Source: a virus. From it: DNA of 64,000 bases. The DNA is taken from IMG/VR virus record IMGVR_UViG_3300021420_000018, positions 1 to 64,000 of that record; one strand, given 5' to 3'. Numbering within the stretch: position 1 is the stretch's first letter; each line of letters starts with the position of its first letter. This document shows, in pieces, positions 8,431 through 49,052 of this stretch. The notes under the pieces were generated by a model, which saw only the letters and a program-made list of their open reading frames with translations, did no database searches and was not told the origin of the DNA. The position numbers and the translations under genes are program-made.

Positions 8431-8597
8431 TTTGAACGCTCACGCAAATCTTTTCCTTGCTGTTCGCACTCGTTTACGTGATCGGTCAGTTCAATGGCGA
8501 CCTCGGGCGTGATCCACTTTTTAACCATGAAGAAGTTGATTGCCAGCCGCATTTCCTGGTATCCAAGGAGCCCAAACTCAGGCAGGTCTTCAGGCAT
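8418..8597 (-). CDS. Hypothetical protein
   Basis: GGAG RBS before MPEDLPEF; overlaps upstream stop. Confidence 0.55.
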   Translation of the reverse strand: MPEDLPEFGLLGYQEMRLAINFFMVKKWITPEVAIELTDHVNECEQQGKDLRERSNHLP

Positions 8598-9423: not shown

Positions 9424-9614
9424 TCCGCTGCCCTCCGGCCACACATTGGGCAGAACTTCGGAAGATCAATAGAATCGCCATCGTCATCTTCCACGATCCA
9501 TATGAACTCACAATTGCCGGCCGAACACAGGACATTTACGTATTCGCACAGATCGGCCGGCGCAGCTTTTGAAACCGTCAGCGTAGTTTCTTGGGCTAAG
9601 CGATTGCCAGGCAT
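9420..9614 (-). CDS. Small Zn-ribbon protein
   Basis: CSAGNC...PKFCPMCG; GAGGAG RBS. Confidence 0.55.
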   Translation of the reverse strand: MPGNRLAQETTLTVSKAAPADLCEYVNVLCSAGNCEFIWIVEDDDGDSIDLPKFCPMCGRRAAE

Positions 9615-10282
9615 GAGGGAAGCTCCTCGCAAAAGTTGCAGTTATCCTTGGTTATATGGCGGTTTACATGCCAGCGTATGTGTAAGGCGAATGGCAGATG
9701 TTTCGTGCCAGGCAATAAATTGTAGTTAGATATAGGATTGTGATTCAGTCTCAGCTTGCGGCTTATTCTCTCCCGCATTTCTTCGGAGCGATTCGCAGCG
9801 GCTGCAGCAATCTTTCGCCTCGTTTCATCCGACCTTGGCACTCTTCTGAGGGATAATTTAGGCACTCCTGTCTCAGACTCGCTTATTTTCTTCTTGTGCT
9901 CTTCGGAAAACGTTTTGCCTTTCATTGGCGAAATCCTGCCCTTTAATGAGGAACTCATCCTCGCACAGTGTTCAGGCGAAGATTTAAGCCCTAGCCGTGT
10001 ATGGCCCGCAACTAGAGATATGTTGTAGGCTGGTCGCTGATCTAGGTAATGCTGTTCACGCTCCAGCAAGTTACAGGGCTCAACGATTTCCACAATTTCA
10101 AACACGAATGCCGCCTCGCCATATTTGGCGTAGGCTCTTTGCAAAATGCCGGACGAATGAACGCCTCTGCGAAGAGTAGAAAGATGCTGCTTAACGCGGA
10201 GATGCCAGTCGTTCGTCGAGCCTACGTAAACCTTGCCATTAACTAGATTGCGTATCCGATATACTGCCGATATTCGTATCAT
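9596..10282 (-). CDS. GIY-YIG homing endonuclease with NUMOD3 repeats
   Basis: AVYRIRNLVNGKVYVGS; REQHY; SEEHKKKISES repeats. Confidence 0.9.
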   Translation of the reverse strand: MIRISAVYRIRNLVNGKVYVGSTNDWHLRVKQHLSTLRRGVHSSGILQRAYAKYGEAAFVFEIVEIVEPCNLLEREQHYLDQRPAYNISLVAGHTRLGLKSSPEHCARMSSSLKGRISPMKGKTFSEEHKKKISESETGVPKLSLRRVPRSDETRRKIAAAAANRSEEMRERISRKLRLNHNPISNYNLLPGTKHLPFALHIRWHVNRHITKDNCNFCEELPSCLAIA

Positions 10283-11070
10283 GGTGCCCATCGATGCCCA
10301 CAACTATTACAATGCCTCATGCCCCCGGCCATAGTCACAGCGGTACTTTTACATTCTGGACATTTCGCCTGCTGGAGAGGCACTCGCTCCGGACCGGGAC
10401 CAGGACTTGAACCAGATGGTCCCTGATAAGCTGCCTTATTACTCCTGAAGAGATATAAATAAAGCACGGAATCCACGTAGTGCTCGGTCTTGACGACTCC
10501 CTTATTGCGGAGCTCGGCCGCCCAACGCGCATCTTCGCCAGGCCCGCCGCGCATCGGCACGAGCAATGCGAGATCCCTGCGGATCGGATTCACGTGCGAG
10601 ATATCTCGATACCAGCCCTTGGAATCTCCGGACCATTCCTTGTAGCGCAAGGAATGAAACGTAGGAACTTGTTTCTCGCCGTCCATGAACATCTGCAGCT
10701 GGAACCCGATGTAATCGATCCCGTCCAGCAGCGGATAAATCGTGGACACGTAGTTGTCGGCCACAAGATCGTCATCGTCTACCTGCGAGACGTAAGTGCC
10801 TTTGGCCTGCTCGATCATCGCTTGACGGTTTGTGCCGAGATCCAATGCCTTCTCGAAGGGGCGCACAATGATTTCCACGTCGTCCATGCCGGCGACTTGC
10901 GGACGCAGTACGTCCATCAAACGCGCGAGCAGCTCCGTGCGGCTAGGGTCGTGCAAAACCAGAATCGACCACTTCATCTCGACCGGTTTTGGCTTCACTT
11001 CTTGCTTCGGCTTAGGTTTCGGCGTTTGCTCAGATTTCGGTTGCTCAGATTTCAGTGTTTGCTCAGCCAT
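10279..11070 (-). CDS. GT2-like glycosyltransferase with C-terminal Zn ribbon
   Basis: AKGTYVSQVDDDD; GED motif; CPEC...CNSC. Confidence 0.8.
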   Translation of the reverse strand: MAEQTLKSEQPKSEQTPKPKPKQEVKPKPVEMKWSILVLHDPSRTELLARLMDVLRPQVAGMDDVEIIVRPFEKALDLGTNRQAMIEQAKGTYVSQVDDDDLVADNYVSTIYPLLDGIDYIGFQLQMFMDGEKQVPTFHSLRYKEWSGDSKGWYRDISHVNPIRRDLALLVPMRGGPGEDARWAAELRNKGVVKTEHYVDSVLYLYLFRSNKAAYQGPSGSSPGPGPERVPLQQAKCPECKSTAVTMAGGMRHCNSCGHRWAP

Positions 11071-11749
11071 TCATCGCCTCCCTGAGTTTTTTAACATCAT
11101 CCATGCGTTGCGAAAGAGAGTTGCGCCATAACTGGCTGACGTTGTCTCGGTCATGGCGAGCTAATCGGTCTTTGGTCGTCTGATCTTCAGCAGACTTTCC
11201 GAACCAGTAATGCATGTGTTCGATTACGAACGGCACATACTTTCTGCGCCCTAGCTGTTCCGCACAAAAGTTTACCCAGGTATCTCCGTAATCGGAACTG
11301 AAAATCCCCGGCGTCAAATAGCCTAGCGTTTCGATCCAGCGTCTGTGCACGAAAGGGTGGACGCCAAACTCTCCATTGCTGCTCGGAAGGCCTGTGTCGC
11401 TGCCGTCCCTACCGTGCACCATCATGATCTTGTCTCGACAGCCGGCGAATGCATCTTCTACCATCAGGTCCCAACCTGGCGTTCTATAGATCACGTCATC
11501 GTTCGACTGTTGCAGCACGTCTCCTGTGGCATGTTTGGCGAGCTCGTTCCAGGTTTGCGAAAGAATAATCCTCGGGCCGATTTGGATATAAGAAACGCAG
11601 AGATTCGCGGCGCACAACGCAGTCGATGGGTCATCCTCATCCGCATAAACCAACACCTCTACAGGCTTTGCTACGGTGGCAAGAATAGAGATGATGGTGC
11701 GCTCCAGTTGAAAGGCCCTGCCTCGGGTGGGAATGAGAATGGATATCAT
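11063..11749 (-). CDS. GT2 glycosyltransferase
   Basis: MISILIPTRGR; NDD motif; paralog of 12375..13052. Confidence 0.8.
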   Translation of the reverse strand: MISILIPTRGRAFQLERTIISILATVAKPVEVLVYADEDDPSTALCAANLCVSYIQIGPRIILSQTWNELAKHATGDVLQQSNDDVIYRTPGWDLMVEDAFAGCRDKIMMVHGRDGSDTGLPSSNGEFGVHPFVHRRWIETLGYLTPGIFSSDYGDTWVNFCAEQLGRRKYVPFVIEHMHYWFGKSAEDQTTKDRLARHDRDNVSQLWRNSLSQRMDDVKKLREAMNG

Positions 11750-12378
11750 CAAAACCGATCGTTGCGCAAAAACAGATTGAAATCGAATACGTGAGTGACG
11801 GTCCACCCTGGCAGCATTGCGAGCAGCTCAGGACGGAGAGCTTGACCATCATACAACTCACGTTCCTCCGACTCGATGAACAAATAGCGCGTGCGTTTTA
11901 GTGCTGCCTGGCCGCCCTTAATCATGTCGCGCTCGGCACCTTGAATATCGACCCACAGCACATCGATGTGATCCAAGCCGGCCTTGGCAAAGATGGTGTC
12001 CAAATCGTAACAAGGAATCTTCTCGCCGAGTAAGCGGAAATCGTACCAGGGTTTTTCACGCAGATGGCCGGTTGGTTTACGTATTGATCCTGAGCCGCGG
12101 CCGTCCGACGTGTAGCAGGCCCAGAAGTCACACATGCCGGTATGGTCGCTGATGGCTCCCCAGATCGCCGTGGCCCCGATGTGGCCGGCGACGTTGGCGA
12201 CGGTTGCGAAGTTTTCTTTGTCAGCTTCGACCATGATGATTTCTGATTGGCGATCTCGAACGTAGCTAGCCATCCAGTTAGCGTCCTCGCCTTGATAGGA
12301 GCCAAGATCGACAATCACAGGGTCTTTGCAGTCTCTTAGAACCGCGCCGACTGCCAGCATTTCATTGTCAGAACTCAC
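11749..12378 (-). CDS. FkbM-family methyltransferase
   Basis: VDLGSYQG; VEAD; IDVLWVDIQGAE. Confidence 0.85.
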   Translation of the reverse strand: MSSDNEMLAVGAVLRDCKDPVIVDLGSYQGEDANWMASYVRDRQSEIIMVEADKENFATVANVAGHIGATAIWGAISDHTGMCDFWACYTSDGRGSGSIRKPTGHLREKPWYDFRLLGEKIPCYDLDTIFAKAGLDHIDVLWVDIQGAERDMIKGGQAALKRTRYLFIESEERELYDGQALRPELLAMLPGWTVTHVFDFNLFLRNDRF

Positions 12379-13052
12379 GACGGCCTCCAGCTCGAATCCA
12401 TCGCCGCTCGCAATGCTTCGCTTTCGCTCTCGCGCTCGCGGGCTGTCAGCTCGAAGGCCTTCCACGGCTCTTGCGCCTGGCGCCTCTCGTTTCCGCGGCG
12501 GTAGGTCTCATCAAGCGGAGCCTTGTTCCAGATAGGGTGAATGTGCTCGACGGTAAAAGGCACGAACTGAATGCGGTTGATTCTTTTGGCCACATCGTAC
12601 AGCCAGGTATCGATGTAGTCGGCGCAAAAGTACGGCGGGATCCACCGGCCTACAGTCTCGATCCAGCGGCGGTGAACGATTGGTGATGTCGGATATTTCG
12701 TGCCGTCCGGACCTCCGTCATTGCCAAAAACCATGAGGATTTTATCTGGACACTGTGCGAAGGCTCCTTCCACCATGCCGTCCCAACCAGGCGTGCGGCA
12801 GATTACATCGTCTGCAGAAGCCATCAGCAGATCACCGGTGGCAAACCGCAGAAGCGTATCCCAGTACGCGGAAAGCACGAGCTGCGGTCCGCGAATGATC
12901 TGCGCATCAAACAGCCGGCCATCGTAGGAGTGATCGTCGTAGTCCACGTAGCAGAGGATTTCCGGTTGCACGTTGCTGTGCAAACGGAAAGATTCGATCA
13001 GGCGAAGCAGTTCATTGGGCCGATTGCGTGTCGGGAATATGATCGAGATCAT
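12375..13052 (-). CDS. GT2 glycosyltransferase
   Basis: MISIIFPTRNR; ADD motif; TPGWD. Confidence 0.8.
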   Translation of the reverse strand: MISIIFPTRNRPNELLRLIESFRLHSNVQPEILCYVDYDDHSYDGRLFDAQIIRGPQLVLSAYWDTLLRFATGDLLMASADDVICRTPGWDGMVEGAFAQCPDKILMVFGNDGGPDGTKYPTSPIVHRRWIETVGRWIPPYFCADYIDTWLYDVAKRINRIQFVPFTVEHIHPIWNKAPLDETYRRGNERRQAQEPWKAFELTARERESESEALRAAMDSSWRPS

Positions 13053-13595
13053 TTATTCTGGCCGCGCGAATACGGCCAATCCTACTACGCTCGGCACCAG
13101 TAAGTGCGGCCAATCTCTGGCGCTCGCAAACGATTCGTACATCAAGTCAAAACCAAAGATAGCGTCATGCCAGCACACGATCCCACCCGGGGAGATATTG
13201 TGTCGATCCAGGCTCATGACTTCATTGATGCGGCAGTCTACGCCTCCGGAATCGATGTGGACAAAATCCATCATTCGAAAACTGCTCAACGTCTCTATTC
13301 CTGACTTCTCAATGACGGAGACAGGTAATCCCTCGAGACGCTTCATGGCTGGCTCGATCCTCTCTGGATCGATATCGCAGGTCGTCAAATGCCCAAAGCC
13401 GTTGTCGCGCAGAGCTCGGCCAATCCACTCGGCCGAATCGCCAACCAGCGTCCCTGTTTCTACACAAACATTCGGCTTGAGCACACGGACCAAGCCATAC
13501 AACAGTGCGCCGACTTCCTGTTCGACGCCGCGGCCAATCACCATGTCGTACAGTTCGCGCTTACGGGTCGCCGGCATCCGTGCGTACAGTTTCAT
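13053..13595 (-). CDS. Class I SAM methyltransferase (Methyltransf_24-like)
   Basis: VETGTLVG; DFVHIDS; PGGIVCWHD. Confidence 0.8.
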   Translation of the reverse strand: MKLYARMPATRKRELYDMVIGRGVEQEVGALLYGLVRVLKPNVCVETGTLVGDSAEWIGRALRDNGFGHLTTCDIDPERIEPAMKRLEGLPVSVIEKSGIETLSSFRMMDFVHIDSGGVDCRINEVMSLDRHNISPGGIVCWHDAIFGFDLMYESFASARDWPHLLVPSVVGLAVFARPE

Positions 13596-14203
13596 TGATG
13601 GGCGCCATTCTTAAGAAGTAGGTTCCAAGGAAACTCTTGCATTAGGACCCAACCTGGCAGCATGGCCAATAGCTGATCTCTCGTCGCCATGTTCTGATAG
13701 ACCGCGCGGTTGAATACTTCCATGAAAAGATAGCGGGTTCGGCTGATCGCCGCGCGCCCGTGATCGATCATGTCGCGCTCCGCTCCGTGGATATCGACAT
13801 AAAGAAGATCGATCTGGCCGATGTTATGACGGCTGCAAAAATCGTCGAACGTATAGCAGGGTACAGGACCGATTCCTGAAAACTCATCTGGCGGTACGCT
13901 CAGACCATCCAACGGCCTGTAAATAGAGCCGAACCCTCCGCCGCTAGAACGCGATCCCCAAAACTCGCAGATCCCGGTGTGGTCGGCAATCGCTCCATGG
14001 ACGGCCACGATCGGAAGCATTTTGGCTGTCAGGTCCTCGAAGTTGAGCGGATCGGCCTCGATGCAGAAAACCTTGGGGCGTCTCGACGCTTCGATCATCC
14101 ATTCCGTATCGCTGCCATCCTGGGCGCCGAGCTCTACGAGACAAGGGCTGTCGCGTTCGGCCAGGATCTTCGAGATTGCTGTTTGTTCTTCAGGATAGGT
14201 CAC
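13592..14203 (-). CDS. FkbM-family methyltransferase
   Basis: VELGAQDG; IEADP; IDLLYVDIHGAE; paralog of 11749..12378. Confidence 0.85.
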   Translation of the reverse strand: MTYPEEQTAISKILAERDSPCLVELGAQDGSDTEWMIEASRRPKVFCIEADPLNFEDLTAKMLPIVAVHGAIADHTGICEFWGSRSSGGGFGSIYRPLDGLSVPPDEFSGIGPVPCYTFDDFCSRHNIGQIDLLYVDIHGAERDMIDHGRAAISRTRYLFMEVFNRAVYQNMATRDQLLAMLPGWVLMQEFPWNLLLKNGAHQ

Positions 14204-25764: not shown

Positions 25765-26889
25765 CTAGTGAGCGGCCGCCGAGGCATATATCCACTCCCT
25801 GTCATAGGCCGCTGGTCCGTGGCCGCGAATCACGACTGGCTGTCCAAAGTCTTGGCTTTTGGGAATAGCTTTCACCGAGATCTGATCGCAGTGATTCAAG
25901 GCGATTCCGTCCACACCTTCCAAAATATCGACTGCGTGCCGGATCAGTTTAAGATCTAAACGGCCGCGACGAAACTTACCTGGAAAGCCGTTGTCGTCAT
26001 TATGCGGCTCAGGCAAAGAATCCAGTTTGGGATCTTCGGTTGGGAGCGGTCCATCGCCATGCCGAGTCAGATACGTCCGCATGACTCCGATTTTCTTGAC
26101 GCGGCCTTCCCATTTGCTTTCCTCGAGCAGATGGAACGCATTATCGAACGTAGTGCATGTCCACGTGTTATAGCCGACTTCGCCGAAGTTCTCATCGAGC
26201 AGCACGCCCTGGGCGCCTTCGAACACGACGTTCTCTTTTTCGTCCAGCTTAAAGCTATCAACGATCTTGGCCGGCCAGCCAGCGTACAGCGCGGCCAGCT
26301 TGTCCACGGCATCAGGATTGTCGATCTCCAAAAAATCTTCTATACACACCACTCTCGCGAAACTGCCGTAGTTGCACACGTGCGCCTTCGCGAGCTGCTG
26401 AAGGAATCGCAGCTTCTGTTTGGTGGTTTCCTGATCGCGCAGGTCGCCGGCGAACAGCACTTTGTTGCCTTCGCGCAGATGGTCGGCGCGCGCCTGGCCT
26501 ACGCCCATGCCGCACGTATTGTGCTTCCCGTGGCTCAGGATGCGATTCACGGCGCAGTGGAACGGAGTGACGATCACGCACTTGGCATCGACCGTGGTGC
26601 GCTCCCAAATGTCCGGAGCCAGATCATTCGCCTCGCGCATCATGTTCAGCGGATTGACCAGCATGAATCGCGAAAGGTGAGTGCGAACGCCCGGAATGAA
26701 AGAGCCGCTGCCGAACTGCGAGAACGTGTGGTGCCGCCCTTCGGGAGTGACGACGTTATGGCCTGCCTGACATCCGCCATTGTAGCGGACGACTAACTTC
26801 ACGTCGCGAGTGCGGCAAATAAAATCTACAGTAGCTCCCTTTCCTTCATCTCCAAATGCCAATCCCGCAACTACGAAGGCATCGCGCAT
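25765..26889 (-). CDS. Adenylosuccinate synthetase-like protein (PurA family, not PurZ)
   Basis: GLAFGDEGKG; RYNGGCQAGH; TCGMGVG; FEGAQGVLLD; TRHGDGPLPTE. Confidence 0.9.
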   Translation of the reverse strand: MRDAFVVAGLAFGDEGKGATVDFICRTRDVKLVVRYNGGCQAGHNVVTPEGRHHTFSQFGSGSFIPGVRTHLSRFMLVNPLNMMREANDLAPDIWERTTVDAKCVIVTPFHCAVNRILSHGKHNTCGMGVGQARADHLREGNKVLFAGDLRDQETTKQKLRFLQQLAKAHVCNYGSFARVVCIEDFLEIDNPDAVDKLAALYAGWPAKIVDSFKLDEKENVVFEGAQGVLLDENFGEVGYNTWTCTTFDNAFHLLEESKWEGRVKKIGVMRTYLTRHGDGPLPTEDPKLDSLPEPHNDDNGFPGKFRRGRLDLKLIRHAVDILEGVDGIALNHCDQISVKAIPKSQDFGQPVVIRGHGPAAYDREWIYASAAAH

Positions 26890-27356
26890 GTAATCTCCTC
26901 CCACGTCTCGCGGCGTCTTATTTTTTTGATCGCGCTTCTGTGGACGCCATATCGCTTCGCTAACAAGGATGAAGGCTCTGTAGATGCAAAGATCTCTTTA
27001 ACCTGTTCAGGCTTTAGTTTGGATCGTGGATGCGGATAAATGTCGTGCGGCGGATTTTTGTTTCTTCCGCGTTCGTGCATGTCCCGAACGTTGTCATCGT
27101 TCGTGCCCTGGTACAAATGACGGGCGTTGCAGCACGGAGGATTATCGCAAGTGTGCAGGACGTCCAACTCTTCGTTGATCTGTCCATGCGCGAGCTCATA
27201 GGCGTGCCTGTGCGCTTTTATCAGCTTCAACTCTGGCGCTTTGGTTCTTAAAACGCCGTAACCTTTTTTGTCGCAGCCTGCCTGCCAAGGCCAACACTCA
27301 TCCTCGCCGCCAATACGAACATGGCTCCAGAAGTCATCGATAAGAGCTCTTTTCAT
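26871..27356 (-). CDS. HNH homing endonuclease with C-terminal HTH
   Basis: CWPW; GYG; AHR; VLHTCDNPPCCNARHL..GT..DN. Confidence 0.9.
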   Translation of the reverse strand: MKRALIDDFWSHVRIGGEDECWPWQAGCDKKGYGVLRTKAPELKLIKAHRHAYELAHGQINEELDVLHTCDNPPCCNARHLYQGTNDDNVRDMHERGRNKNPPHDIYPHPRSKLKPEQVKEIFASTEPSSLLAKRYGVHRSAIKKIRRRETWEEITCAMPS

Positions 27357-28638: not shown

Positions 28639-28899
28639 CTATGACCAATCGATGTTCGGATAAGTTCCGTACGGAATGACGTTGCCGTCTTCGTCTATCA
28701 CAGGACTCGGTATTTGATTCTCTTCCAGCGGCCACAGGTGCGAGGCGTTATGAGCGCAGACGCGGCAGACAGGCTTTCCACGCAAGATCAGGACTGGCAC
28801 GAATGGCTTCTCGGTTTGCGGCGCGTCTTCATCGGAAATAACTACCGCGGCCGAGATCTCCGGCGTGATTGCCTGTCCACCGCACTGCGTACAGTTCAT
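28639..28899 (-). CDS. Zn-binding hypothetical protein
   Basis: CTQC...CRVC. Confidence 0.5.
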   Translation of the reverse strand: MNCTQCGGQAITPEISAAVVISDEDAPQTEKPFVPVLILRGKPVCRVCAHNASHLWPLEENQIPSPVIDEDGNVIPYGTYPNIDWS

Positions 28900-29849
28900 G
28901 GAAGTGTGATCCGGCGCCTGAACGTGCGAACCGAACCGGCAATCCTGGCAAGGTCAGATTCGCCGACGCCAACCGATTCAAGATCGGCCGCGAGGCCGTC
29001 CTGGGTCACACGATCTTCGTTCAGCCCGATGATGGCTCCAATCTGTTCGCAGATCAGGTCGGGATGCTGAAGAGTGAAAACAGATTCTTCGCCAAATAGA
29101 CGCACGTACTGCCTGCGGGAGTCCGTGAGCGGACTATTCGAAGGCCAGAACACAAACGGGTAGTAGGTTCGCTTCAAGTCTTCGATCATCGTCTCGATGG
29201 GAATGTCCGCAGGGATTGTGTCACCGAAAACAGCTTGAACTTGCGGAGCGCTCACGTGATCGAAGATCGGCTCGTCCGCGTACATGAAGAAATAGCCCTT
29301 GCGGTTGCGCCGTTCAAAGCAATCGAGAGCTGTCTTGCGCGCGGCCAAGTACATCAGCAGGTCGTAAGACTCGCCGCTATTGCTGCCGCCTTTCCCGACC
29401 AGCCAGACGTTGCGGATGTGTTCGTCGATGCGGATATCGCTTTCGTAATCGGAAATCTGAATGCAGTTTGCGCCAACGACGTTGTAGTCGTCGTTTGCGG
29501 CGACGGCCACCTGCGGATCGCTCAGATACTTGTGGGCGAGTTCCATGAGGTTTGGAAGTTTTAGCTGGGCGGCGACGGCGTTATGGTAGTTCGAGCCGGT
29601 CACGTCAAAGCAGACCATGACGGCATTCGATTCGGGATGCTCGGCGCTGTCGCGGCTTTCAAGGATTCCTGCCGGCTTTCGGTTGATCCGCAAAGGATCT
29701 AAGTTGGGGTGAATCTTCTTGGTCAGCTCTGCTTCCTGGCTGTAGGCGAAATCGACTGACATCGGCGCTACGCCAAGCGAATGCGCGGTCGCCGTACGAG
29801 TTGAACGCAAAGTGGTGTATGTTGCTGAGTTCCATCGTCCACTACCCAT
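28896..29849 (-). CDS. vWA-domain protein
   Basis: ESRDSAEHPES; FDVTGS MIDAS; GGSNSGESY; KGYFFMYADE. Confidence 0.8.
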   Translation of the reverse strand: MGSGRWNSATYTTLRSTRTATAHSLGVAPMSVDFAYSQEAELTKKIHPNLDPLRINRKPAGILESRDSAEHPESNAVMVCFDVTGSNYHNAVAAQLKLPNLMELAHKYLSDPQVAVAANDDYNVVGANCIQISDYESDIRIDEHIRNVWLVGKGGSNSGESYDLLMYLAARKTALDCFERRNRKGYFFMYADEPIFDHVSAPQVQAVFGDTIPADIPIETMIEDLKRTYYPFVFWPSNSPLTDSRRQYVRLFGEESVFTLQHPDLICEQIGAIIGLNEDRVTQDGLAADLESVGVGESDLARIAGSVRTFRRRITLP

Positions 29850-30261: not shown

Positions 30262-30291
30262 ACAATAAGCGTTTACTATTGGCGTTGTCAA
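30262..30291 (-). promoter_or_regulatory. Sigma70-like promoter with operator (vWA/PurA operon)
   Basis: TTGACA-18-TATTGT; TAAGCGTTTA at 30266-30275. Confidence 0.7.
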
Positions 30292-31676
30292 GCGTCTTCA
30301 GAAACTTTGCTCACGGCCAAAACGCAAGCGCAGTGGGGATGCTGCGGCGGCTTGGTTGCTCCGGAGAAGAACTTACTGCCGATCTCTACTTCCTGATCCT
30401 GATTCATAAGGCATTCCGGGCAAGGGTCGAGATTGGACGTGAGCCACTTCACTTTCTCTACGACGCCGGACTTTTCCCAGGTTGAGAAGTTGCTGGCCGA
30501 TTGCGCCATCGCGATCTCGCTGCGCGCAATCATCTTGGCGCGCCCCAAACTGAAAATGCCTTCGCCTTCGGTTTCCTCGGCAAGTGCCTCGCGTATGTCA
30601 TTGACGACTTCCGATATCGGAGTTTCTTTCGTGAACGAGTCGGCGACGATCTGGCGGATCTTGTCCCGGGTAGTTTGCGAGATGGCCCAACGCGCATTCG
30701 GATTTTCGACCAGGTTGCCTTCGTTGTCGAACTTCTTGCCGATCATTTCCGCGGCTCGATGGGTCGCATACTCTTGCGCGCTGCGATTGGCCGAAGCGAT
30801 CAGTTTGGAGTTCGAGACATCGATCTGCAACAGGCCGTGGCCGGCGCCGGAGAGTGCTGCCGATTCCAAGGACGAGCGCACTTGCGACGGCAGCGCCAGC
30901 CATTGAGCTTCTAAGACGGTGATGAGCCGATCCGTGAATGCTTGGGCATCGTCCGCATCTGCCTTGGCTAATAGCTTCGCAAACTTCTTGGAACTGTTCG
31001 GGCCGGCGACGCCATTGGCCTGCGCGAATGCAGAACTCTCGGCCTCTTTGTCGGACTTGCCATCTTTCTTCGCACGCTCGTACGCGCTGTTCCAGACGGC
31101 CACCCATTGCTTGCGCTTGGATTGCCGGACATAGTCCGGCGCATCGCTCGCCGATGAATACGGCTTCTGCAAAAACGTTTCGCGATAGCCCTTTTCCAGG
31201 TCCGTAAAAGTTTTCTCCCTGCTTCGAAACTGCAAATCACGCAGCGTGATGGTCTGGCCTTTCAGAGGATTCTCGCCCTGGGCGTGTTTCTGCGCCATTC
31301 CTTTTTTGAAATAGCCGATCGTCAGGTGCGGCTGAAAAGTGGGATGAGGGTCGGTGTGCGGAAGTGCGGCCAGGGCGTCGTGCAGCTTAACTAGCTTTTC
31401 GCTCTCCAGCAAAAATACCAGCGGCTCGCCTTCATCGTTCTCGGGGAAAGCGTGAAGATCTCCGAACGTTACATCGACTGTGCCCGTGCCTTTGGTGATG
31501 GCGCTCACCTGGTCGGGAGTGACTTCAGGATGGAAACCCCATCGCACCGTTACGTGCGGAGTCAGTTCACGGCCCTTCGGCGCGAGCTCGCTTTCCTCGA
31601 TGCCCTTTTGCAAATCGAGCACGCGTTGCGCATCAACCGGAGACAAGGTGAACTGAACTGCGCCGTATTTAGCCAT
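30288..31676 (-). CDS. MuF-like head morphogenesis protein fused to 2H phosphoesterase (Acb1/LigT-like) and ChaB-like domains
   Basis: PHVTV and PHLTI (two HxT motifs); WVAVWNSAYE...SAFAQAN; RAKMIARSE; CPEC; PPQHPHCAC. Confidence 0.85.
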   Translation of the reverse strand: MAKYGAVQFTLSPVDAQRVLDLQKGIEESELAPKGRELTPHVTVRWGFHPEVTPDQVSAITKGTGTVDVTFGDLHAFPENDEGEPLVFLLESEKLVKLHDALAALPHTDPHPTFQPHLTIGYFKKGMAQKHAQGENPLKGQTITLRDLQFRSREKTFTDLEKGYRETFLQKPYSSASDAPDYVRQSKRKQWVAVWNSAYERAKKDGKSDKEAESSAFAQANGVAGPNSSKKFAKLLAKADADDAQAFTDRLITVLEAQWLALPSQVRSSLESAALSGAGHGLLQIDVSNSKLIASANRSAQEYATHRAAEMIGKKFDNEGNLVENPNARWAISQTTRDKIRQIVADSFTKETPISEVVNDIREALAEETEGEGIFSLGRAKMIARSEIAMAQSASNFSTWEKSGVVEKVKWLTSNLDPCPECLMNQDQEVEIGSKFFSGATKPPQHPHCACVLAVSKVSEDA

Positions 31677-34600
31677 TACGACAGATTCTGTTCCTCGAGA
31701 CTCTTGTGACCGAACAGCAGCGTCGCCTTCCAGCCGCTCGGCGCGTTTTCGTCGGGGTTCAGCACGAGCATGCCGCCCTCGTCAAGGTCGAGCACGCCAT
31801 CATCGCCATCGAACATTTCCATCGACAGCTCTCGCAGACATGAGCCCGAGAATACCGTGAGAGTCGGCCCGCCGCTCGCCAGCCCTTCTGATTTGATGTC
31901 GGTCATAAAAGCAGTCAGGCGGGCAATGAATACATTCCTCGACTCGCCGCCTTCCGGAGCTTCGTCTGGATTCTTCATCAGCCGCTTTACTTTTTCTTTG
32001 TTCGGAGCCTTCTTCTTGCCGGCGAGCACGCCCAGGTTCCAGGTCTTGGCGCGATCATCTTCGACAACCCGCGGATGGTAGATCGATCCGCTGGATACGA
32101 TGTCGGCCGTCTCTTTGGTGCGCTTGAGCGTGGCGCAATAAATCTTCCGGAGAGGAACTTCGCTCAAGTATTGCTGGGCCGTGATCAGCTTCACGCGGCC
32201 GTCATCGGAAAGCGGGAAGTCAAGCCAGCCGTCTGAGCGATGCACCGGATCGAGAGCGGTGCGGCCGTGGCGCATCAAGAAAAGCGACTTGTACGTGTAA
32301 TCAACCGCAGCTTCGGCTTTCTGCAGCGGGGCCAGGCCTTCGCGGAAAGCTTTCTCCAGCGTTTGGTCCTCGAGCCTCACACTCTTCTCGGAACGTGCCA
32401 GACGCGCACGTATCGACTCCGCCTTGCGCAGCTTGAAGAAGCGGTTGGTTTCCTCGCGCGCCATGGTCAGTTGCTTGGTGAAAATGCTTCCAAGCACATG
32501 CTCGATCTGATGAATCCCCTGCTGGCTTTCAGGCGTGAGCATGGATGGATCGATACGGGATCCATGGCGCTTGGCAATCTGATCGTCGGCGATAACTTCG
32601 TGGATGGTCTTCACCAACTCTTCGTGACTGGTCTTCTGCCCATCGAGCGATTCTTTGCCGTTGTCGACGCCAACGTTTCGGCCAGTCGAGCGGCCTCCGC
32701 CGGCTTCCTGCGCCACAGGCGTTCCCGATCTTCCCGCATTGTGGTCGCCGTCATTGCCGTTATTCATGGGCCCGCCAGCTCCAGGAGCATCGGGATTCGG
32801 CGTAACTGGATGCGGCTTGGGTCTGCCGGAATCGTCAATCTGCACGCCAGCCTGAACAGAGGGAATGCCAATCGGCATGAATCCCGTTCCGGTAACGATG
32901 CCCAGGCGATCCGCTTCCGGTTCCGGCCGCAGCTCTTCGCCGACGCGCTTGCGCGCTTCGTTCGGCGTCATCACACCGCTCTTGACGTACATCGTGATAG
33001 CCGCGGCGTTCTTGAGTGGATCCGGCTCCGCGTAAGGATTCATCGCGATTTCGTACTCGATGAATCCCATCTTTTTCTGGATGATGTAGTCGATGACGCC
33101 TTTGAGCCAGGTCACCCAGGGCAGCGTGCCTTCAATCGTCGACGCATCGCCGGCAGCCCTGCCTTCGGTGCGGATCATGCGGATCAAACGCTGTGGACTT
33201 GTGCCGTACGCAAAACAAATCTGGCGGATATGCTTCTCGTCGTACACGCCGGCAAGCAACGGTTCCTTCGAGAAAATAATCTGATCTTCCTTGCCAGGCT
33301 CGTTGAATCCTTGCACCAGACGCCACTGATTGCGCGCCGCCAGGTTGCCGGCGAGCTGCGAGTTCATCCAGTCCATGGCTTCGGTGATGCGCTCAGGAGA
33401 AGTGCCGCGAGGAACGACTTGCACGACGCCCGGGATCGATCCTTCCTCGTAATAAGCGCGCACGAACTTCAGTCTGGAAATGCCGACCATGATTTCTTCG
33501 GCGACTTGTTCGGTCGGGGAATTTCCTGCAAAACATGCCTTGCCGTTGCGGCGAACATAGACAACGCTGTTCGGTACAGTTAGACAGTAAACTTTTCCGG
33601 AGTATGGCTGCCGACGAGTTTCGAATTTCTTGGTATAGCTACCTCTTTTATGAACGGCAACCACATAGTGCGCACGTGAGTTAATAGCCAGAATTGTGCG
33701 ACGCATTCCATTTCTGCCAATGATAGTGCGGTCGCGAAGAATTATCTTGCGAATGGTGGCGTACACTCCCATCTTCTGCGCTAATTCCTGTAATTGATCA
33801 GCAAGACGCTTACTGGAAGTGAAGGCTCTTGATCTGCTGGCATCTCCATCGCCTAACCAGAAATGATGCCAAAAAATCTGCAACTGGCGCGATGTCGCAT
33901 TCATGATTTCTTGTGGAATGTATTTGTCGCCAGCATGGCCAAGGGGCCGCAGGTGGCGCGCCAGAAACTTGGATCCGATGATAAATGCATCGTTACTATA
34001 GAGAACAGGACCGTTGTTTATCTTGTGCAGCAAGGCGCGCATTTCAGAGATTCGCTTGTTGTTTTTAGATTGTGCGATGTAGACGTAATTGCCTTCACAA
34101 CTTCCTTCGGCAAGATAGAGGCCAATCAACGCACAATAATCATCGCCGCTCATCTCCAACACACGGCCATCGTGGATATGTCGCTGCCGATTTCGGACGA
34201 CCGCTTGATGGGCAGTCGCCAAGGCAACGCCGGCGACTGCGCCGATCTGCGAATAAGACAATCCTTGCGATCGTAGTTCGCGACAGCGAGCGTCGAGTTG
34301 AAGTCGGGAGACATGCCGATCTTCCGCAATGGCAGGGAAGCGCTTCGAATTAACTTCTACGCCATGCCATATAGACGTTACTGGAATCCCAGTTGCAGAA
34401 GTACAGTGTTTCTCTAATTCGGCTGCAGATACTAAGACATCGCCAGAACGGTGTTTGTTACCACCGAGACTAAAAGGCAACTTATCAATGACCATCCTGT
34501 GCTGTGGTGTTACTTCGAGATCCAAAGAACGAGAGGAGAATCTAATTAAATCTCCGACATAGTCATAGCAATGCTTGGCCGTAGCGAGCTGCCACTCGAA

Positions 34601-35446
34601 AGCTTTCGTCTTAAGATTACGCGTAGCTATTCGTTCTGTCTTGATATCGACATCCTGGAACAACTTCCATCCGGATTCAGTCAAGACTTCCGTCCCGTCG
34701 CGATAACACTGCCCATACAATTGGGAAGCCAGTGTGTTACGGGGAGCGATATTCCTGGGTTTGTAAACCAATTGGTCTGTTGTGAGGTTCACAAGGGGTA
34801 TCCCCCACCAGTTTTGCGCATAGGCGGGATTCGGCGGTACCGGCGTCAGTCCGTTCTCGTCGATGTAACGCACGATCATCTCGCCGCGCAGCACCACCAT
34901 TTCGGCAAGTTCGTTACGGAAGTTTTTCCTGAGCAGGATCGACGAAGCATCGATGACCAGCAGATCATCGAGCAACGGACGCAGCCAGTCCTGCCAGTTG
35001 TGCTCGCGGTCGGGATACTCGAAAAACCGATTGAGCAGGAGAAGTGTTGCATCGCCTTTAGAGCGAATGGCCACATCGCTGCGCGTTTCGCCTGGCTTGG
35101 CGCGCATCTGAATTTCCCAGGGCACGCGGCTTATGGTGTCTTTGACGTTCTCGATGCAGACCGCTGCGAGTGGATATTTGGCGAGAGCCTTTAAATCGGC
35201 TGCACTATACTCAGCATCCTGCCGCGGCGTCCACCACAAGTTCTGGCCGGCCCAGTATTGGTAGGCGCGTGGTTCGGTGCCTGGAGGCCCGAGAGGCTTA
35301 ATGGGTTGAAGCGGTGAATACCAGGAATCCTGCTCGATGCCGCGAATCTGATCAGGTGGCCGCTGGTAAAGCGACTGGCCGTATCGCTGAATGGCACCGA
35401 CCATTTGGCCGATCGGCCGGATAACCAGATCGCCGCGCTTTGCCAT
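31676..35446 (-). CDS. Portal protein with intein and C-terminal histidine-phosphatase-like domain
   Basis: LLDDLLVID; YG|SP; ICFAYGTSP; GVMTPNEAR; C-terminal RHG...GWLDFPLSDDG...PEGGES. Confidence 0.88.
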   Translation of the reverse strand: MAKRGDLVIRPIGQMVGAIQRYGQSLYQRPPDQIRGIEQDSWYSPLQPIKPLGPPGTEPRAYQYWAGQNLWWTPRQDAEYSAADLKALAKYPLAAVCIENVKDTISRVPWEIQMRAKPGETRSDVAIRSKGDATLLLLNRFFEYPDREHNWQDWLRPLLDDLLVIDASSILLRKNFRNELAEMVVLRGEMIVRYIDENGLTPVPPNPAYAQNWWGIPLVNLTTDQLVYKPRNIAPRNTLASQLYGQCYRDGTEVLTESGWKLFQDVDIKTERIATRNLKTKAFEWQLATAKHCYDYVGDLIRFSSRSLDLEVTPQHRMVIDKLPFSLGGNKHRSGDVLVSAAELEKHCTSATGIPVTSIWHGVEVNSKRFPAIAEDRHVSRLQLDARCRELRSQGLSYSQIGAVAGVALATAHQAVVRNRQRHIHDGRVLEMSGDDYCALIGLYLAEGSCEGNYVYIAQSKNNKRISEMRALLHKINNGPVLYSNDAFIIGSKFLARHLRPLGHAGDKYIPQEIMNATSRQLQIFWHHFWLGDGDASRSRAFTSSKRLADQLQELAQKMGVYATIRKIILRDRTIIGRNGMRRTILAINSRAHYVVAVHKRGSYTKKFETRRQPYSGKVYCLTVPNSVVYVRRNGKACFAGNSPTEQVAEEIMVGISRLKFVRAYYEEGSIPGVVQVVPRGTSPERITEAMDWMNSQLAGNLAARNQWRLVQGFNEPGKEDQIIFSKEPLLAGVYDEKHIRQICFAYGTSPQRLIRMIRTEGRAAGDASTIEGTLPWVTWLKGVIDYIIQKKMGFIEYEIAMNPYAEPDPLKNAAAITMYVKSGVMTPNEARKRVGEELRPEPEADRLGIVTGTGFMPIGIPSVQAGVQIDDSGRPKPHPVTPNPDAPGAGGPMNNGNDGDHNAGRSGTPVAQEAGGGRSTGRNVGVDNGKESLDGQKTSHEELVKTIHEVIADDQIAKRHGSRIDPSMLTPESQQGIHQIEHVLGSIFTKQLTMAREETNRFFKLRKAESIRARLARSEKSVRLEDQTLEKAFREGLAPLQKAEAAVDYTYKSLFLMRHGRTALDPVHRSDGWLDFPLSDDGRVKLITAQQYLSEVPLRKIYCATLKRTKETADIVSSGSIYHPRVVEDDRAKTWNLGVLAGKKKAPNKEKVKRLMKNPDEAPEGGESRNVFIARLTAFMTDIKSEGLASGGPTLTVFSGSCLRELSMEMFDGDDGVLDLDEGGMLVLNPDENAPSGWKATLLFGHKSLEEQNLS
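33521..34708 (-). mobile_element. Intein (396 aa) with LAGLIDADG endonuclease in portal
   Basis: Q|CYRDGTEVLTESGW; VTPQH; GLYLAEG; FWLGDG; VYCLTVPN...VRRNGK..FAGN|S. Confidence 0.92.
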
Positions 35447-45775: not shown

Positions 45776-46186
45776 CTATTCGGAGGTGGGTGTTGCCGCG
45801 ACATCCAATGTTTTTGCTGCTCTCGCTGCAATCTCCGGAGGCAACGGCTCTTTGACCAAAACGATTTCGATCCTGCGATCCGCCGGCCCGATCTCAACAC
45901 GCTGCGCTGCTTTGCCATCCGTCGCTTCGCGCATCTCGCGCGCTGGACCAGGATGACCTTTCGTTACTGCTTCACGAATCAGACCAAGCGCAACTGCGTC
46001 GGCCATCAAAGAGTTTTCATTCAGCGGATGAAAAAATGCGCTCGCCTTTTTCAAAACGCGCAACAGTTGTGGGGGGATGGTCTCGTTTAGCTGCCGAACA
46101 TAAGCCTGGCGCAGCGCAGCAGCCGACTGGAGACCGGAGGGTCTTGAGTTGTTTGTATTTGCGACTCCGTTGGTTCTATTGGCCAC
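45776..46186 (-). CDS. Possible terminase small subunit-like protein
   Basis: RPSG; A..G...AREMREATDGKAAQRVE pattern recalls TerS-like proteins; divergent from TerL; start uncertain. Confidence 0.45.
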   Translation of the reverse strand: MANRTNGVANTNNSRPSGLQSAAALRQAYVRQLNETIPPQLLRVLKKASAFFHPLNENSLMADAVALGLIREAVTKGHPGPAREMREATDGKAAQRVEIGPADRRIEIVLVKEPLPPEIAARAAKTLDVAATPTSE

Positions 46187-46292
46187 GTTTAGTTTCGCCG
46201 TCTCGTATAAGTGTAGTAATACCAGAGTCTTGGGTTTTCGCGCAAGTGGGGGATTCGCCAGTGTTCCGGGTTTGTGGTGTAATGATCGCGGA

Positions 46293-49052
46293 ATGAGTGA
46301 AGGGCAAGAACCGACCAAGCCGTTTGTGGTAGCAGCTCCGAAAGTAAAAGGGGGAGCGCCGCGAATATACTACCAGTGCACCAAGCATGTTTCTCATGCG
46401 TGGTCGTCGGACGACATGGAGACCGCGTATTGCTATCGGTGCAAGAAGACCCGGATGGAGTTATTGATTCCGGCGCCCACGATTGAAGAGGCCAGTAACG
46501 TAATCGATGATCTGGTAAAGGAAGCGCAGGGCGATCCGTGTCCGATCCATGTAAGGAATGTAGATGGATTTCCAGAACAGAAAGAGTTGGTGGAATCCGC
46601 GAGAAAACGAAAGATGGTGCGAGCGGGAAGACGTGGAGGGAAGACCACGAGTGCGGCGACTTTGACCGTGAATCACTTTGCCAAAGGGGGAAGGGTTTTG
46701 TATGCGGTGCCGGTGGTTGACCAACTGGAGAAGTGGTGGAAAGAAGTTTTATGGAGTCTGCGGGAACTGATCAATGCCGGGAGGGTATACAAGAACGAGA
46801 CCGAGCACGTGATTGAGTTCCGGGGGACCGACAACCGGATCAAGGGGAAGACGGCGTGGAATGCCGATACGCTCAGAGGTGACTGGTGCACGCTACTGGT
46901 TTTGGACGAATACCAGCTGATGGATGAGACGGCGTGGACCGAAGTGGGTCAGCCGATGATGATTGACAAAGACGGAGATGCGGTCTTGATTTACACGCCG
47001 CCGAGTTTAAGTTCGCGGTCGATCAGCAAAGCCGTGGACAAGCAGCATGCGTCCAAGATGTTCAAGCGGTGCTCGGCCGATCCGGAATGGCTGTGTTTGC
47101 ATTTTTCATCGAGGGCCAATCCGTTTCTGTCCAAAGAGGGAATCGATCGGGCCGAACGCAATATGAGCAAGCTCGCGTTCATCCAGGAGATTGAAGCCGT
47201 GGATACCGACGAAGTGCCGAATGCGTTGTGGACCAGAAAAGTGTTGGACGATTCCCGGGTGCTCGCGCCAACGGAATGGGACCGCAAAGAACGGAAGTTT
47301 GTGATACCGCCAGCGCTGAGGGCGAAATATCCGGAGGCGCCGGATGCGCCGGTATTTCCTGGCGGTTATCGCAGGATCGTGGTGGCCATTGACCCTTCGG
47401 GATCGACAACCACGGAAGTGGGGATTGTGGCGGCAGGAGAAGCGTTTGACGGTGAGTATTACATCCTGTTTGACGAATCGATGTTTGCGTCACGGCCAAA
47501 AGCGTGGGCGGGCCAATCGATCAGGCTTTATGAAAAATGCGGCGCTGACCGGATCGTGGCCGAACGGAACTTTGGCGGCGACATGGTGGAAGAGACCTTG
47601 AAGACCGTGGATGAGAATATTCCGTATAAAGACATTGTCTCGAGCCGCGGTAAGCTCGTTAGGGCCGAACCGGTGAGCTCGCTGTTTGAGCATAACCGCG
47701 CGCACATGGTTGGCGAGTTTCCGGAACTTGAAGATGAACTCGTGAGCTACACGGGAATGCCAGGTGAGCGCAGTCCTAATCGCCTGGACGCTTGCTTTGT
47801 AAAAGGCACGAAGGTGTTGACCAGGCGCGGGAACATCCCCATCGAAGCCGTTCGAGTTGGTGACTTTGCTTGGACGCGCCAAGGCTGGAAGCGAATCCTC
47901 AAAGCTGGAATCACATCAGCGCGAGCGCCGGTGACAACGCTCCAGTTAAGTGATCGTTCGATTACCGGAACAAGCTCTCACCCTATTTGGGCTATAGGCA
48001 AGGGATTCACAGCTATGGACGCATTGGTTTGTGGTGATACAATGCTGACGTGCCAAAGCGACAGCCGCAGCAAACTAAAGAGCGGCCCGAAACCATCTAT
48101 TTTCAAGGCATTCCGTACCACAGATATCCGGACAGCAAGCGCCGCAATCAACGCGTTTATTATACAGGCAGTAAGAATGGCCGAACTGTTATGTTGCACC
48201 AAGCCATCTGGGAATATCATCGTGGGCCGATTCCGAAAGGCTATCACGTACATCACGTCGACGATGACCCACTCCACAATGAGATTTCAAATTATGAATG
48301 CTTATCCCCGGCCGCGCACAACTCAAAGCTTCGGGGCAAATCCAGCGATCGGAGGCGACGCCATTTGGCAGACGTTCGACCGCTTGCATCGGAATGGCAC
48401 TCCAGTCCGGAAGGAATCGCTTGGCACCGCAACCACGGTAAACGCACTTGGCGTGGCCGCAAGCCGCAGCCAAAAGGGAAATGTTTGTCGTGCAATGAGC
48501 CCATCAAAGGATTCAAAGATAAACGCTTCTGCAGCCGAGCCTGCATGCAGACAGCCTATAGAAAAAACCACACATATCAGTGTTTGGTCTTGTGCCCCAT
48601 TTGCGGCAATCCGTTCTGGCAAAGCAAATATCGGCCACGACCGAAGTTTTGCTCCCGTCTATGTGCTTGGGAAGCACGACGCAGGGAGCGCACCGGTTTA
48701 CAATTTGGAAGTTGAGGACGCACACGAATATTTCGCCAACGGGATCCTTGTTCACAACTGCGTGTTCGCGATCATGGAGCTGTTAGGGCCCGGTGCGCTC
48801 AGCCTGGTCGAACTGTACAAGCAGGGTGGAATGGAGAAATACATGCTGCCCAAAACAACTGCCGCGACGTCCTTGGCCAGTGTGGCCACAAACAGCAAAA
48901 CTCCAAAATGTCCGCAGTGCCATCAGATTACGCTGCAAAATAACGTGGCCGGCCAAATCCGCTGCGGACATTGCGGATTCCAGCGGCCGATACCAGGGCA
49001 GCCCAACGTGCAGCCGATTGGCGGCCGGCGCGCGATCGATCTCCGCAAGTAA
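46293..49052 (+). CDS. terL: Terminase large subunit with intein
   Basis: RAGRRGGKT Walker A; LRG; LVLDE Walker B; VAIDP; AERNFGG; GKLVRAEP; SPNRLDA. Confidence 0.93.
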   Translation: MSEGQEPTKPFVVAAPKVKGGAPRIYYQCTKHVSHAWSSDDMETAYCYRCKKTRMELLIPAPTIEEASNVIDDLVKEAQGDPCPIHVRNVDGFPEQKELVESARKRKMVRAGRRGGKTTSAATLTVNHFAKGGRVLYAVPVVDQLEKWWKEVLWSLRELINAGRVYKNETEHVIEFRGTDNRIKGKTAWNADTLRGDWCTLLVLDEYQLMDETAWTEVGQPMMIDKDGDAVLIYTPPSLSSRSISKAVDKQHASKMFKRCSADPEWLCLHFSSRANPFLSKEGIDRAERNMSKLAFIQEIEAVDTDEVPNALWTRKVLDDSRVLAPTEWDRKERKFVIPPALRAKYPEAPDAPVFPGGYRRIVVAIDPSGSTTTEVGIVAAGEAFDGEYYILFDESMFASRPKAWAGQSIRLYEKCGADRIVAERNFGGDMVEETLKTVDENIPYKDIVSSRGKLVRAEPVSSLFEHNRAHMVGEFPELEDELVSYTGMPGERSPNRLDACFVKGTKVLTRRGNIPIEAVRVGDFAWTRQGWKRILKAGITSARAPVTTLQLSDRSITGTSSHPIWAIGKGFTAMDALVCGDTMLTCQSDSRSKLKSGPKPSIFKAFRTTDIRTASAAINAFIIQAVRMAELLCCTKPSGNIIVGRFRKAITYITSTMTHSTMRFQIMNAYPRPRTTQSFGANPAIGGDAIWQTFDRLHRNGTPVRKESLGTATTVNALGVAASRSQKGNVCRAMSPSKDSKINASAAEPACRQPIEKTTHISVWSCAPFAAIRSGKANIGHDRSFAPVYVLGKHDAGSAPVYNLEVEDAHEYFANGILVHNCVFAIMELLGPGALSLVELYKQGGMEKYMLPKTTAATSLASVATNSKTPKCPQCHQITLQNNVAGQIRCGHCGFQRPIPGQPNVQPIGGRRAIDLRK
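48035..48043 (+). promoter_or_regulatory. Extended -10 promoter inside the intein
   Basis: TG-a-TACAAT, 7 nt before GTG 48050. Confidence 0.55.
48050..48715 (+). CDS. HNH endonuclease nested out of frame in the TerL intein
   Basis: LHQAIWEYHRGPIPKGYHVHHVDDDPLHNEISNYECL; two CxxC...FCSRxC Zn fingers. Confidence 0.88.
   Translation: MPKRQPQQTKERPETIYFQGIPYHRYPDSKRRNQRVYYTGSKNGRTVMLHQAIWEYHRGPIPKGYHVHHVDDDPLHNEISNYECLSPAAHNSKLRGKSSDRRRRHLADVRPLASEWHSSPEGIAWHRNHGKRTWRGRKPQPKGKCLSCNEPIKGFKDKRFCSRACMQTAYRKNHTYQCLVLCPICGNPFWQSKYRPRPKFCSRLCAWEARRRERTGLQFGS

Follow-up and report, generated by a model that had tools for sequence, protein, structure and literature searches.

Fusions of 2H phosphoesterase domains to phage head proteins have been described before. 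Iyer et al. (2017, PMC5512222) reported 2H domains fused to MuF or portal proteins, for which they proposed roles as RNases or in the degradation of defense nucleotides, and they presented MuF as a known hub for fused enzymatic cargo. In a later account, such fusions were taken to suggest packaging in the head and injection against SMODS, cyclic-mononucleotide, and CRISPR signaling (Iyer et al. 2022, PMC9503650). The idea of a head-packaged enzyme acting against immune signals was therefore already printed as a prediction in 2017 and 2022 and is not new. Among phage enzymes with the 2H fold, Acb1 uses Y12, W74, F107, and W147 as lid and base-stacking residues, and its product, G[3'-5']pAp[3'], ends in a 3'-phosphate (Hobbs et al. 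2022, PMC9117128). Our literature searches returned nothing on a virion-packaged Acb1; one preprint, going by its title, concerns an ejectosome protein that inhibits the cyclic oligonucleotide-based antiphage signaling system. Here, we analyze a minor head gene with an N-terminal 2H domain in a 64,000-nucleotide stretch of viral DNA (positions 1 to 64,000 of IMG/VR record IMGVR_UViG_3300021420_000018; the window). The gene, its domains, and the portal gene upstream of it are laid out as follows.

30288..31676, minus strand: 2H / ChaB-like motif / MuF minor head gene (the target), 462 amino acids (ORF list, translation, Pfam, PHROGs)
31191..31676, minus strand: 2H phosphoesterase domain, residues 1-162 (PF13563, motifs, predicted fold)
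about 31548-31556, minus strand: catalytic motif H41-V-T43 (motif search)
about 31320-31328, minus strand: catalytic motif H117-L-T119 (motif search)
30987..31166, minus strand: ChaB-like helical motif, residues 171-230 (alignment, weak ChaB similarity)
30297..30986, minus strand: MuF/SPP1 gp7-type minor head domain, residues ~231-460 (PHROGs, relatives)
31676..35446, minus strand: portal gene, 1256 amino acids, upstream of the target (Pfam, PHROGs)
31703..32299, minus strand: His_Phos_1 domain, portal residues 1050-1248, with RHG at 1059-1061 (Pfam, local hidden Markov model [HMM])

The preliminary description of this DNA had given positions 30288-31676 for the gene, and the ORF list has a minus-strand open reading frame (ORF) with precisely these limits, translated into 462 residues. 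The target lies directly downstream of the portal gene within the late head operon. The portal TAA stop and the target ATG share one base in a TAATG overlap.

The N-terminal 2H domain and its two intact HxT motifs, also claimed in that description, were borne out by family membership (PF13563), by the motifs H41-V-T43 and H117-L-T119, and by the predicted fold. The Pfam family 2_5_RNA_ligase2 (PF13563; cut-off 27 bits) matched the whole protein at 41.1 bits (E 2.4e-10) and isolated residues 1-165 at 43.7 bits. H41, T43, and H117 were invariant in an alignment of 32 sequences (the target and 31 relatives), in which F77, F/Y114, and Y122 stood out as conserved aromatics. An AlphaFold2 model of the domain, built on that alignment, reached a mean predicted local distance difference test (pLDDT) score of 95.3 and a predicted template modeling score of 0.89. 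Compared with many solved 2H enzymes, the model gave Z scores of 13-15 with 135-159 residues aligned. From the motifs and the model, we predict that the 2H domain is catalytically competent. The host genome has two further 2H genes (G000:C20:47171-47476 and G000:C7:21317-21754). These share 25-30% identity with the phage domain in the aligned stretch and are not closely related to it; their second motifs read HLTIV and HLTLAR (one each), compared with HLTIGY in the phage domain.

Among relatives of the target, the 2H domain is optional cargo that has been shuffled among head-internal carriers. A word-index search gave 26 non-self matches. Nine of them (P0003-P0011; 52-61% identity, 290-364 amino acids) consist of the ChaB-like motif and MuF only. 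Others carry the 2H domain in different company: P0014 is a portal collinear with the one in the window, and its C terminus is a 2H domain sharing 50% identity with that of the target; one protein has 2H and MuF without the ChaB-like motif (P0013), another has 2H followed by a Cys-rich stretch, the ChaB-like motif, and MuF (P0002), and in a further one the ChaB-like motif and 2H domain are joined to a Mu-like prophage I protein (P0023). In P0012, the ChaB-like motif and MuF are followed by a His_Phos_1 domain.

We also compared 80 viral-contig loci related to the ChaB-like and MuF part of the target by scanning stop-to-stop ORFs with local HMMs; the set includes near-duplicates (L013=L014, L016=L017, and L040-42). 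The 2H domain was present at 18 of the 80 loci, every time with the portal core on one side and the MuF core on the other. It sat on the portal C terminus at nine loci, in a separate 2H-HisPhos ORF at two, within a single portal-2H-MuF ORF at three, and N-terminal to MuF in an ORF apart from the portal at four, like the arrangement in the window. The remaining loci (62/80) lacked 2H, and many of these were plain portal-MuF fusions. Carriers of the domain thus comprise the portal C terminus, the MuF N terminus, portal-2H-MuF chains, and protease or Mu-I-like scaffolds. Such movement among head-internal carriers is the pattern expected of an encapsidated passenger.

The wider family points to similar partners. 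When the 165-residue domain was compared by phmmer with a set of 1.84 billion representatives, 3335 matched at E<=1e-3, and 1080 of them at E<=1e-10. The top 148 of the 3335 had a median length of 909 amino acids; 35 were longer than 2000 amino acids and 20 were 260 or shorter. A Pfam scan took in 73 of these 148 (up to 1129 amino acids) and found a portal in 10, MuF in 6, and His_Phos_1 in 5, along with single cases of XkdF protease, ADP-ribosyltransferase, GGDEF, zeta kinase, sigma-70 r2, and GNAT. Local HMMs run on all 148 recovered the same five phosphatase fusions and 10 MuF fusions. The 2H domain in the window is the version described in "polyvalent proteins" by Iyer et al. (2017).

The carrier was recognized as MuF mainly through its relatives. 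On the target itself, Pfam Phage_Mu_F (PF04233) scored 24.5-25.9 bits, under its cut-off of 29.6, and NCBIfam phageSPP1_gp7 (TIGR01641) scored 20.8 bits, under its cut-off of 39.65. PHROG families for minor head and head morphogenesis proteins matched the target with E values down to 2.7e-12, and three relatives that are 53-58% identical over the ChaB-like and MuF part (P0002, P0009, and P0012) passed the Pfam MuF threshold at about 44 bits. Furthermore, among those of the 80 related loci that include upstream DNA, the MuF match adjoins or is fused to the portal in nearly all. By this route, the MuF assignment of the preliminary description was upheld, with the target alone falling under the Pfam and NCBIfam cut-offs. 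The domain has a C-terminal CxxC...HPxCxC motif. Modeling of residues 165-462 was poor (pLDDT 60.1), and Foldseek found no PDB match for this model at E<=0.001, so that the model carries no information on the MuF fold.

Between the 2H and MuF domains lies the segment previously described as a ChaB-like domain. Its helical character and a weak resemblance to ChaB stand, but the Pfam ChaB profile was not reached: PF06150 gave no match at E<=10 on a 74-residue piece, and in a six-frame search of the whole genome it passed over the target and matched only an unrelated locus on C8. A profile of the ChaB-like and MuF part retrieved no ChaB from the PDB, only SipA at an E value of 1.6. The resemblance comes from two proteins that share the motif, P0027 and P0017, which scored 17.6 and 13 bits with Pfam ChaB (below the cut-off of 27), from P0025, which one source names ChaB, and from structure. 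The motif was modeled as a helical hairpin with pLDDT 74-85 (pLDDT 60 for the whole model), and Escherichia coli ChaB (1sg7) was its only whole-domain match (Z 5.5, root mean square deviation [rmsd] 2.2 Å, 56/75 residues, 25% identity [VIA]), at a Z score tied with helical noise at 5-6 and with a Foldseek E value of 2.8 and a template modeling score of 0.58 on the target. We consider a ChaB-like identity plausible. The motif occurs once in the genome according to a local HMM, and BLASTP found no match between it and the phage's own DUF6582-bearing protease.

In nine close relatives, the ChaB-like motif is the N terminus of the protein (MPYSS...). It also heads another ORF downstream of MuF in many related phages, often the very next gene (L027, L036, L040-42, L044-47, L053, L064-66, L075, and L084), and in P0016-P0021 it stands ahead of weak matches to XkdF protease or S78 protease. 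The motif behaves like a mobile N-terminal tag of head-internal proteins and may serve as a targeting or portal-binding module.

The portal gene carries a second enzyme. Its C-terminal domain matched His_Phos_1 (PF00300) with an E value of 5.9e-21 and 75.4 bits against a cut-off of 21.7, and it abuts the 2H domain across the boundary between the portal and target genes. The domain is a generic branch 1 histidine phosphatase; its closest solved relative was PhoE (1ebb; E 1.4e-9), and it reached no NCBIfam equivalog. Four of the nine closest non-self relatives (45-69% identity) are portal fusions, one of them portal-2H-phosphatase, and one further relative among the nine is a 2H-phosphatase fusion. 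A phosphatase acting after a 2H enzyme is chemically sensible because Acb1 leaves a 3'-phosphate product, and the same holds for 2',3'>P RNA ends. The two domains might form a two-enzyme cassette at the portal vertex, in which the 2H enzyme opens a ribose phosphodiester or a 2',3'-cyclic phosphate and the phosphatase then strips the remaining terminal phosphate, although we hold this to be doubtful. It is just as doubtful whether such a cassette would let the phage enter ready to dismantle a nucleotide immune signal fully or to repair RNA or tRNA ends bearing 2',3'>P.

Literature searches found no paper on the pairing of 2H and histidine phosphatase in phages. The word "phosphatase" is absent from the main text of PMC5512222, and "histidine phosphatase" is absent from the text of PMC9503650, figures and supplements aside. 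The recurring phosphatase partner at the portal-MuF junction is the one fresh, testable lead from this analysis, and it limits the likely substrates to those that yield a product with a terminal phosphate that can be taken off. Within one lineage of close phages, the same junction carries no cargo, 2H, histidine phosphatase, or both. That series adds a natural set of variants to the printed prediction, around which virion proteomics and substrate assays could be designed directly.

Our favored explanation, to which we give a little short of an even chance, is that the target is a minor head protein with an N-terminal 2H domain grafted on and loaded into the head against immune messengers. We regard it as likely that the 2H domain is head-loaded enzyme cargo, and we propose only tentatively that its job is the degradation of immune messengers. 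MuF and the portal would both be at the portal vertex inside the procapsid, so that a domain tethered to either would be loaded into the head. In this phage, the loaded enzymes would be the 2H domain on MuF and the histidine phosphatase on the portal C terminus. The 2H enzyme would carry out metal-independent transesterification and hydrolysis of a ribose phosphodiester (3'-5' or 2',3'-cyclic) and leave a terminal phosphate, which the neighboring phosphatase may take off. The most likely purpose would be to have the enzyme present at or soon after DNA entry, destroying host nucleotide immune messengers (cyclic or linear oligonucleotides). In this scheme, we infer the encapsidation of the 2H domain, its release or ejection, its substrate, and its cooperation with the phosphatase. 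If a head-borne 2H enzyme does enter with the DNA, it would act before any phage gene is expressed, which matters for defenses that signal within minutes. The packaged anti-defense enzyme of the preliminary description has gained comparative support for its cargo part, from a domain that is optional and mobile; its Acb1-like label is weak, and the premise of an unusual N-terminal position does not hold here.

The identity of the enzyme was approached through both sequence and fold. Pfam Acb1 (PF23474; cut-off 27) reached 26.0 bits when run on the complete target and 29.3 bits when run on the 2H domain alone, in both cases below PF13563. The best PDB matches of the domain by phmmer were Acb1 entries, at E values of only 0.46 and 1.2. 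The top four rows from Foldseek were PDE-9 of phage BCSR5 (9q2y and 9q2g) and FBB1 Acb1 (E 1-4e-6), with 16-20% identity for Acb1 and PDE-9 compared with 11-16% for LigT and the cyclic phosphodiesterases (CPDases). The only NCBIfam match to the 2H domain was TIGR02258 (RNA 2',3'-cyclic phosphodiesterase), with 24.2 bits against a cut-off of 65.7. At the level of sequence, the domain appears to lean slightly toward the phage Acb1/PDE-9 phosphodiesterases. Structural Z scores against the 2H model were as follows.

drCPDase (5h7e): Z 15.1
TT0787 (1iuh): Z 14.9
Arabidopsis CPDase (1jh6): Z 14.4
YjcG: Z 14.3
LigT: Z 14.2
Acb1: Z 13.9, rmsd 2.8 Å, 135/137 Acb1 residues aligned
Usb1: Z 13.8
PDE-9: Z 13.3

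Several of these and other results weigh against the explanation we favor. The modeled fold does not single out Acb1, since Acb1, LigT, the CPDases, YjcG, and Usb1 are tied. The preliminary description had called the domain Acb1-like and had proposed structure prediction against Acb1 and LigT as a check; the prediction gave a confident 2H fold and did not separate the clades (13.9 versus 14.2). With PF23474 at about its cut-off and PDB matches at E values of 0.46-1.2, an Acb1-like identity is not established, and the label is best treated as a weak lead rather than as membership. Viral 2H groups are reported to differ sharply in substrate, and two of them to cleave 0/18 messengers (Doherty et al. 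2025, bioRxiv 10.1101/2025.08.21.671373). Because viral 2H groups differ so strongly, a substrate call from fold alone is unsafe. The placement of the domain also loses force as an argument: cargo N-terminal to MuF had been taken as unusual, and 2H lies upstream of the MuF core at 18/18 loci, where this is the rule. A portal-fused domain would have to be cut free before it could exit the capsid. No SMODS CD-NTase (PF18144) was found in the co-assembled genome, which is 98.9% complete (TIR, Cas10, and Pycsar cyclases were not searched for). SAVED (PF18145) was likewise found zero times in the co-assembled genome, with a control that was equally silent, so that this result is uninformative. In the literature, we found no experimental test of the head-packaged 2H prediction.

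The phosphatase adds a further difficulty. In a MAFFT alignment of the domain in the window and its nine closest relatives, all 10 sequences have Ser ("SGS") at the position of the second His. We take that column to be the second conserved catalytic His of branch 1 histidine phosphatases. His fills the same column in P0012 and P0040 and follows one position later in P0093; P0081 has Ser there. The portal-linked clade may use altered chemistry, judging from these residues. It is probably functional, because the clade is conserved. A C-terminal "FGHK" is conserved in most of the 10 sequences.

A different job for the enzyme would be the healing of RNA ends or the processing of RNA, with the 2H domain working on RNA either as a Usb1-like RNase or as a 2',3'-cyclic phosphodiesterase. 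Where host nucleases cleave anticodons or acceptor stems and leave 2',3'>P ends, the 2H domain and the phosphatase would jointly convert these to 2',3'-OH and so protect tRNAs early in infection. The highest structural Z scores do go to CPDases and LigT-type enzymes (5h7e, 15.1; 1iuh, 14.9; 1jh6, 14.4), and the sole NCBIfam match, TIGR02258, names this activity but lies far under its cut-off (24.2 versus 65.7). For healing, it makes sense to pair a cyclic phosphodiesterase with a phosphatase that acts after it, and the two domains recur together. The phage also encodes 10-11 tRNAs, and its Ro60/TROVE RNA-quality-control protein is encoded 6-10 kb from the target; an RNase role is also listed by Iyer et al. 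(2017, PMC5512222). The partners that would complete such a repair did not turn up, however. Among 108 ORFs scanned (43 from the window with PHROGs and 65 from the rest of the contig with Pfam, both at E<=1e-5, leaving out ORFs under 90-110 amino acids and ORF C17:81492-83078), there was no RNA ligase (Rnl), RtcB, or polynucleotide kinase. The only ligase was an ATP-dependent DNA-ligase-type domain on the same contig stretch as a Ku gene, and Iyer et al. (2017, PMC5512222) state that an association of such 2H versions with RNA ligases never occurs. On this evidence, we judge RNA healing to be unlikely.

It is also conceivable that the enzyme is never delivered and that the fusion serves only to tie its expression to that of the late head genes or to hold it at proheads under assembly. 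It would then act late in the producing cell, where its targets could include signals set off by structural proteins, and would be trimmed or inert in the virion. Half of the 2H loci (9/18) place the domain on the portal C terminus, fixed in the capsid, and ORF boundaries shift freely around the domain, suggesting that the carrier matters little. Against this, fusions recur to three head-internal carriers (portal, MuF, and protease or scaffold), and the family sits in giant polyvalent proteins (35/148 top matches exceed 2000 amino acids), which have been argued to be transferred with DNA (Iyer et al. 2017, PMC5512222). We therefore rate this explanation as quite improbable. A degenerate or purely structural 2H domain, incapable of catalysis, is the least credible alternative, with a very small chance of being correct: both HxT motifs are intact, H41, T43, and H117 do not vary across the 32 aligned sequences, and the confident 2H model has both motifs in canonical fold positions. 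Head-loaded cargo directed against immune messengers accordingly remains the explanation we prefer, with the strength given above for each of its parts.

The surrounding genome is that of a phage. Contig C17 (123,707 bp), whose first 64 kb make up the window, has a guanine-plus-cytosine (GC) fraction of 0.548; the large contigs of the 6.8-Mb, 48-contig co-assembled genome have a GC of about 0.59. All recognizable C17 genes were phage-like (PHROGs on window ORFs, Pfam on the remainder). They include structural genes for the portal, protease, head-tail adaptor, terminase, and tail proteins, as well as DnaB, a DnaC-like loader, ParB, RecT, Ku, a DNA ligase domain, and many HNH/GIY-YIG endonucleases. 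Neither an integrase match nor a terminal overlap was found on C17. The contig is probably a free phage genome that was co-assembled with its host. In a tblastn search of a phage database, none of the 14 matching records covered at least 80% of the target protein. Because portal-2H-MuF single chains exist in relatives, we considered a frameshift or readthrough between portal and MuF; the junction shows the TAATG overlap only. Other features of the contig are listed here.

33557..34699, minus strand: intein with LAGLIDADG homing endonuclease in the portal core, portal residues ~250-630 (LAGLIDADG_3 match)
46149-49052, plus strand: large terminase, 967 amino acids, also intein-interrupted (Hint_2 and Intein_splicing matches)
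28896-29849, minus strand: 317-amino-acid protein two genes downstream of the target, matching phrog_2971 (function unknown) at E 4e-48
25765-26904, minus strand: adenylosuccinate-synthetase homologue matching phrog_1211, labeled as PurZ-type enzyme
23059-24687, minus strand: Ro60 orthologue with TROVE and vWA_Ro60 (E 4e-57), beside the tRNA cluster
20584-22013, minus strand: 10 tRNA genes (ARAGORN), with an 11th, weak Rfam tRNA match at 20584-20643
8590-14203, minus strand, within the structural region: UDP-glucose dehydrogenase-like gene, two glycosyltransferases, two methyltransferase-like genes, and a GIY-YIG homing endonuclease
L003:8399-9496 and L003:13510-14355: Ku protein and ATP-dependent ligase domain encoded on C17

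Portal HMM matches were split at residues 4-249 and 631-996 around the intein, and the collinear portal of relative P0014 has none. The 317-residue protein had no Pfam family match. MuF and the prohead protease are ~10 kb apart, with small genes of unknown function between them. Beside the Ro60 gene, Rfam at gathering thresholds found no Y RNA and matched only tRNAs. The PurZ-type homologue may point to a genome modified with 2-aminoadenine.

Among described systems, the 2H domain resembles several enzymes. LigT/ThpR, the plant and Deinococcus CPDases, YjcG, and Usb1 match its fold with equal or slightly higher Z scores (13.6-15.1), but these cellular 2H enzymes show lower identity (9-14%), and TIGR02258 is well under its cut-off. 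Acb1 (T4, FBB1; PMC9117128; 7t26/7t27) and PDE-9 share with it the 2H fold, the HxT/HxT tetrad, and compact size, and HMMER alignments show that FBB1 Acb1 also shares the second motif "aromatic-x-P-H-x-T-x-x-Y." In contrast to our domain, which is fused to a head protein, those enzymes are free-standing, and identity is only 16-20%. Animal UBASH3/Sts/TULA proteins likewise combine a 2H phosphoesterase with a C-terminal histidine phosphatase; they are eukaryotic signaling proteins with UBA and SH3 domains, and the likeness is a parallel only. The target shares with MuF polymorphic cargo proteins and SPP1 gp7 a MuF core after the portal gene. Unlike in those proteins, the cargo is not C-terminal: in the target and most of the relatives that we examined, it precedes the MuF core, at the junction with the portal. 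The nearest counterparts are the 2H fusions of Iyer et al. (2017, 2022), with the same domain family, whose top relatives here sit in proteins of up to about 5000 amino acids, and, in the accounts given in those papers, the same MuF and portal carriers, late-gene context, and proposed roles. What sets this locus apart from them is the order of its parts: the 2H domain comes before MuF, at the N terminus, with a ChaB-like motif after it, and the C terminus of the adjacent portal bears a histidine phosphatase.

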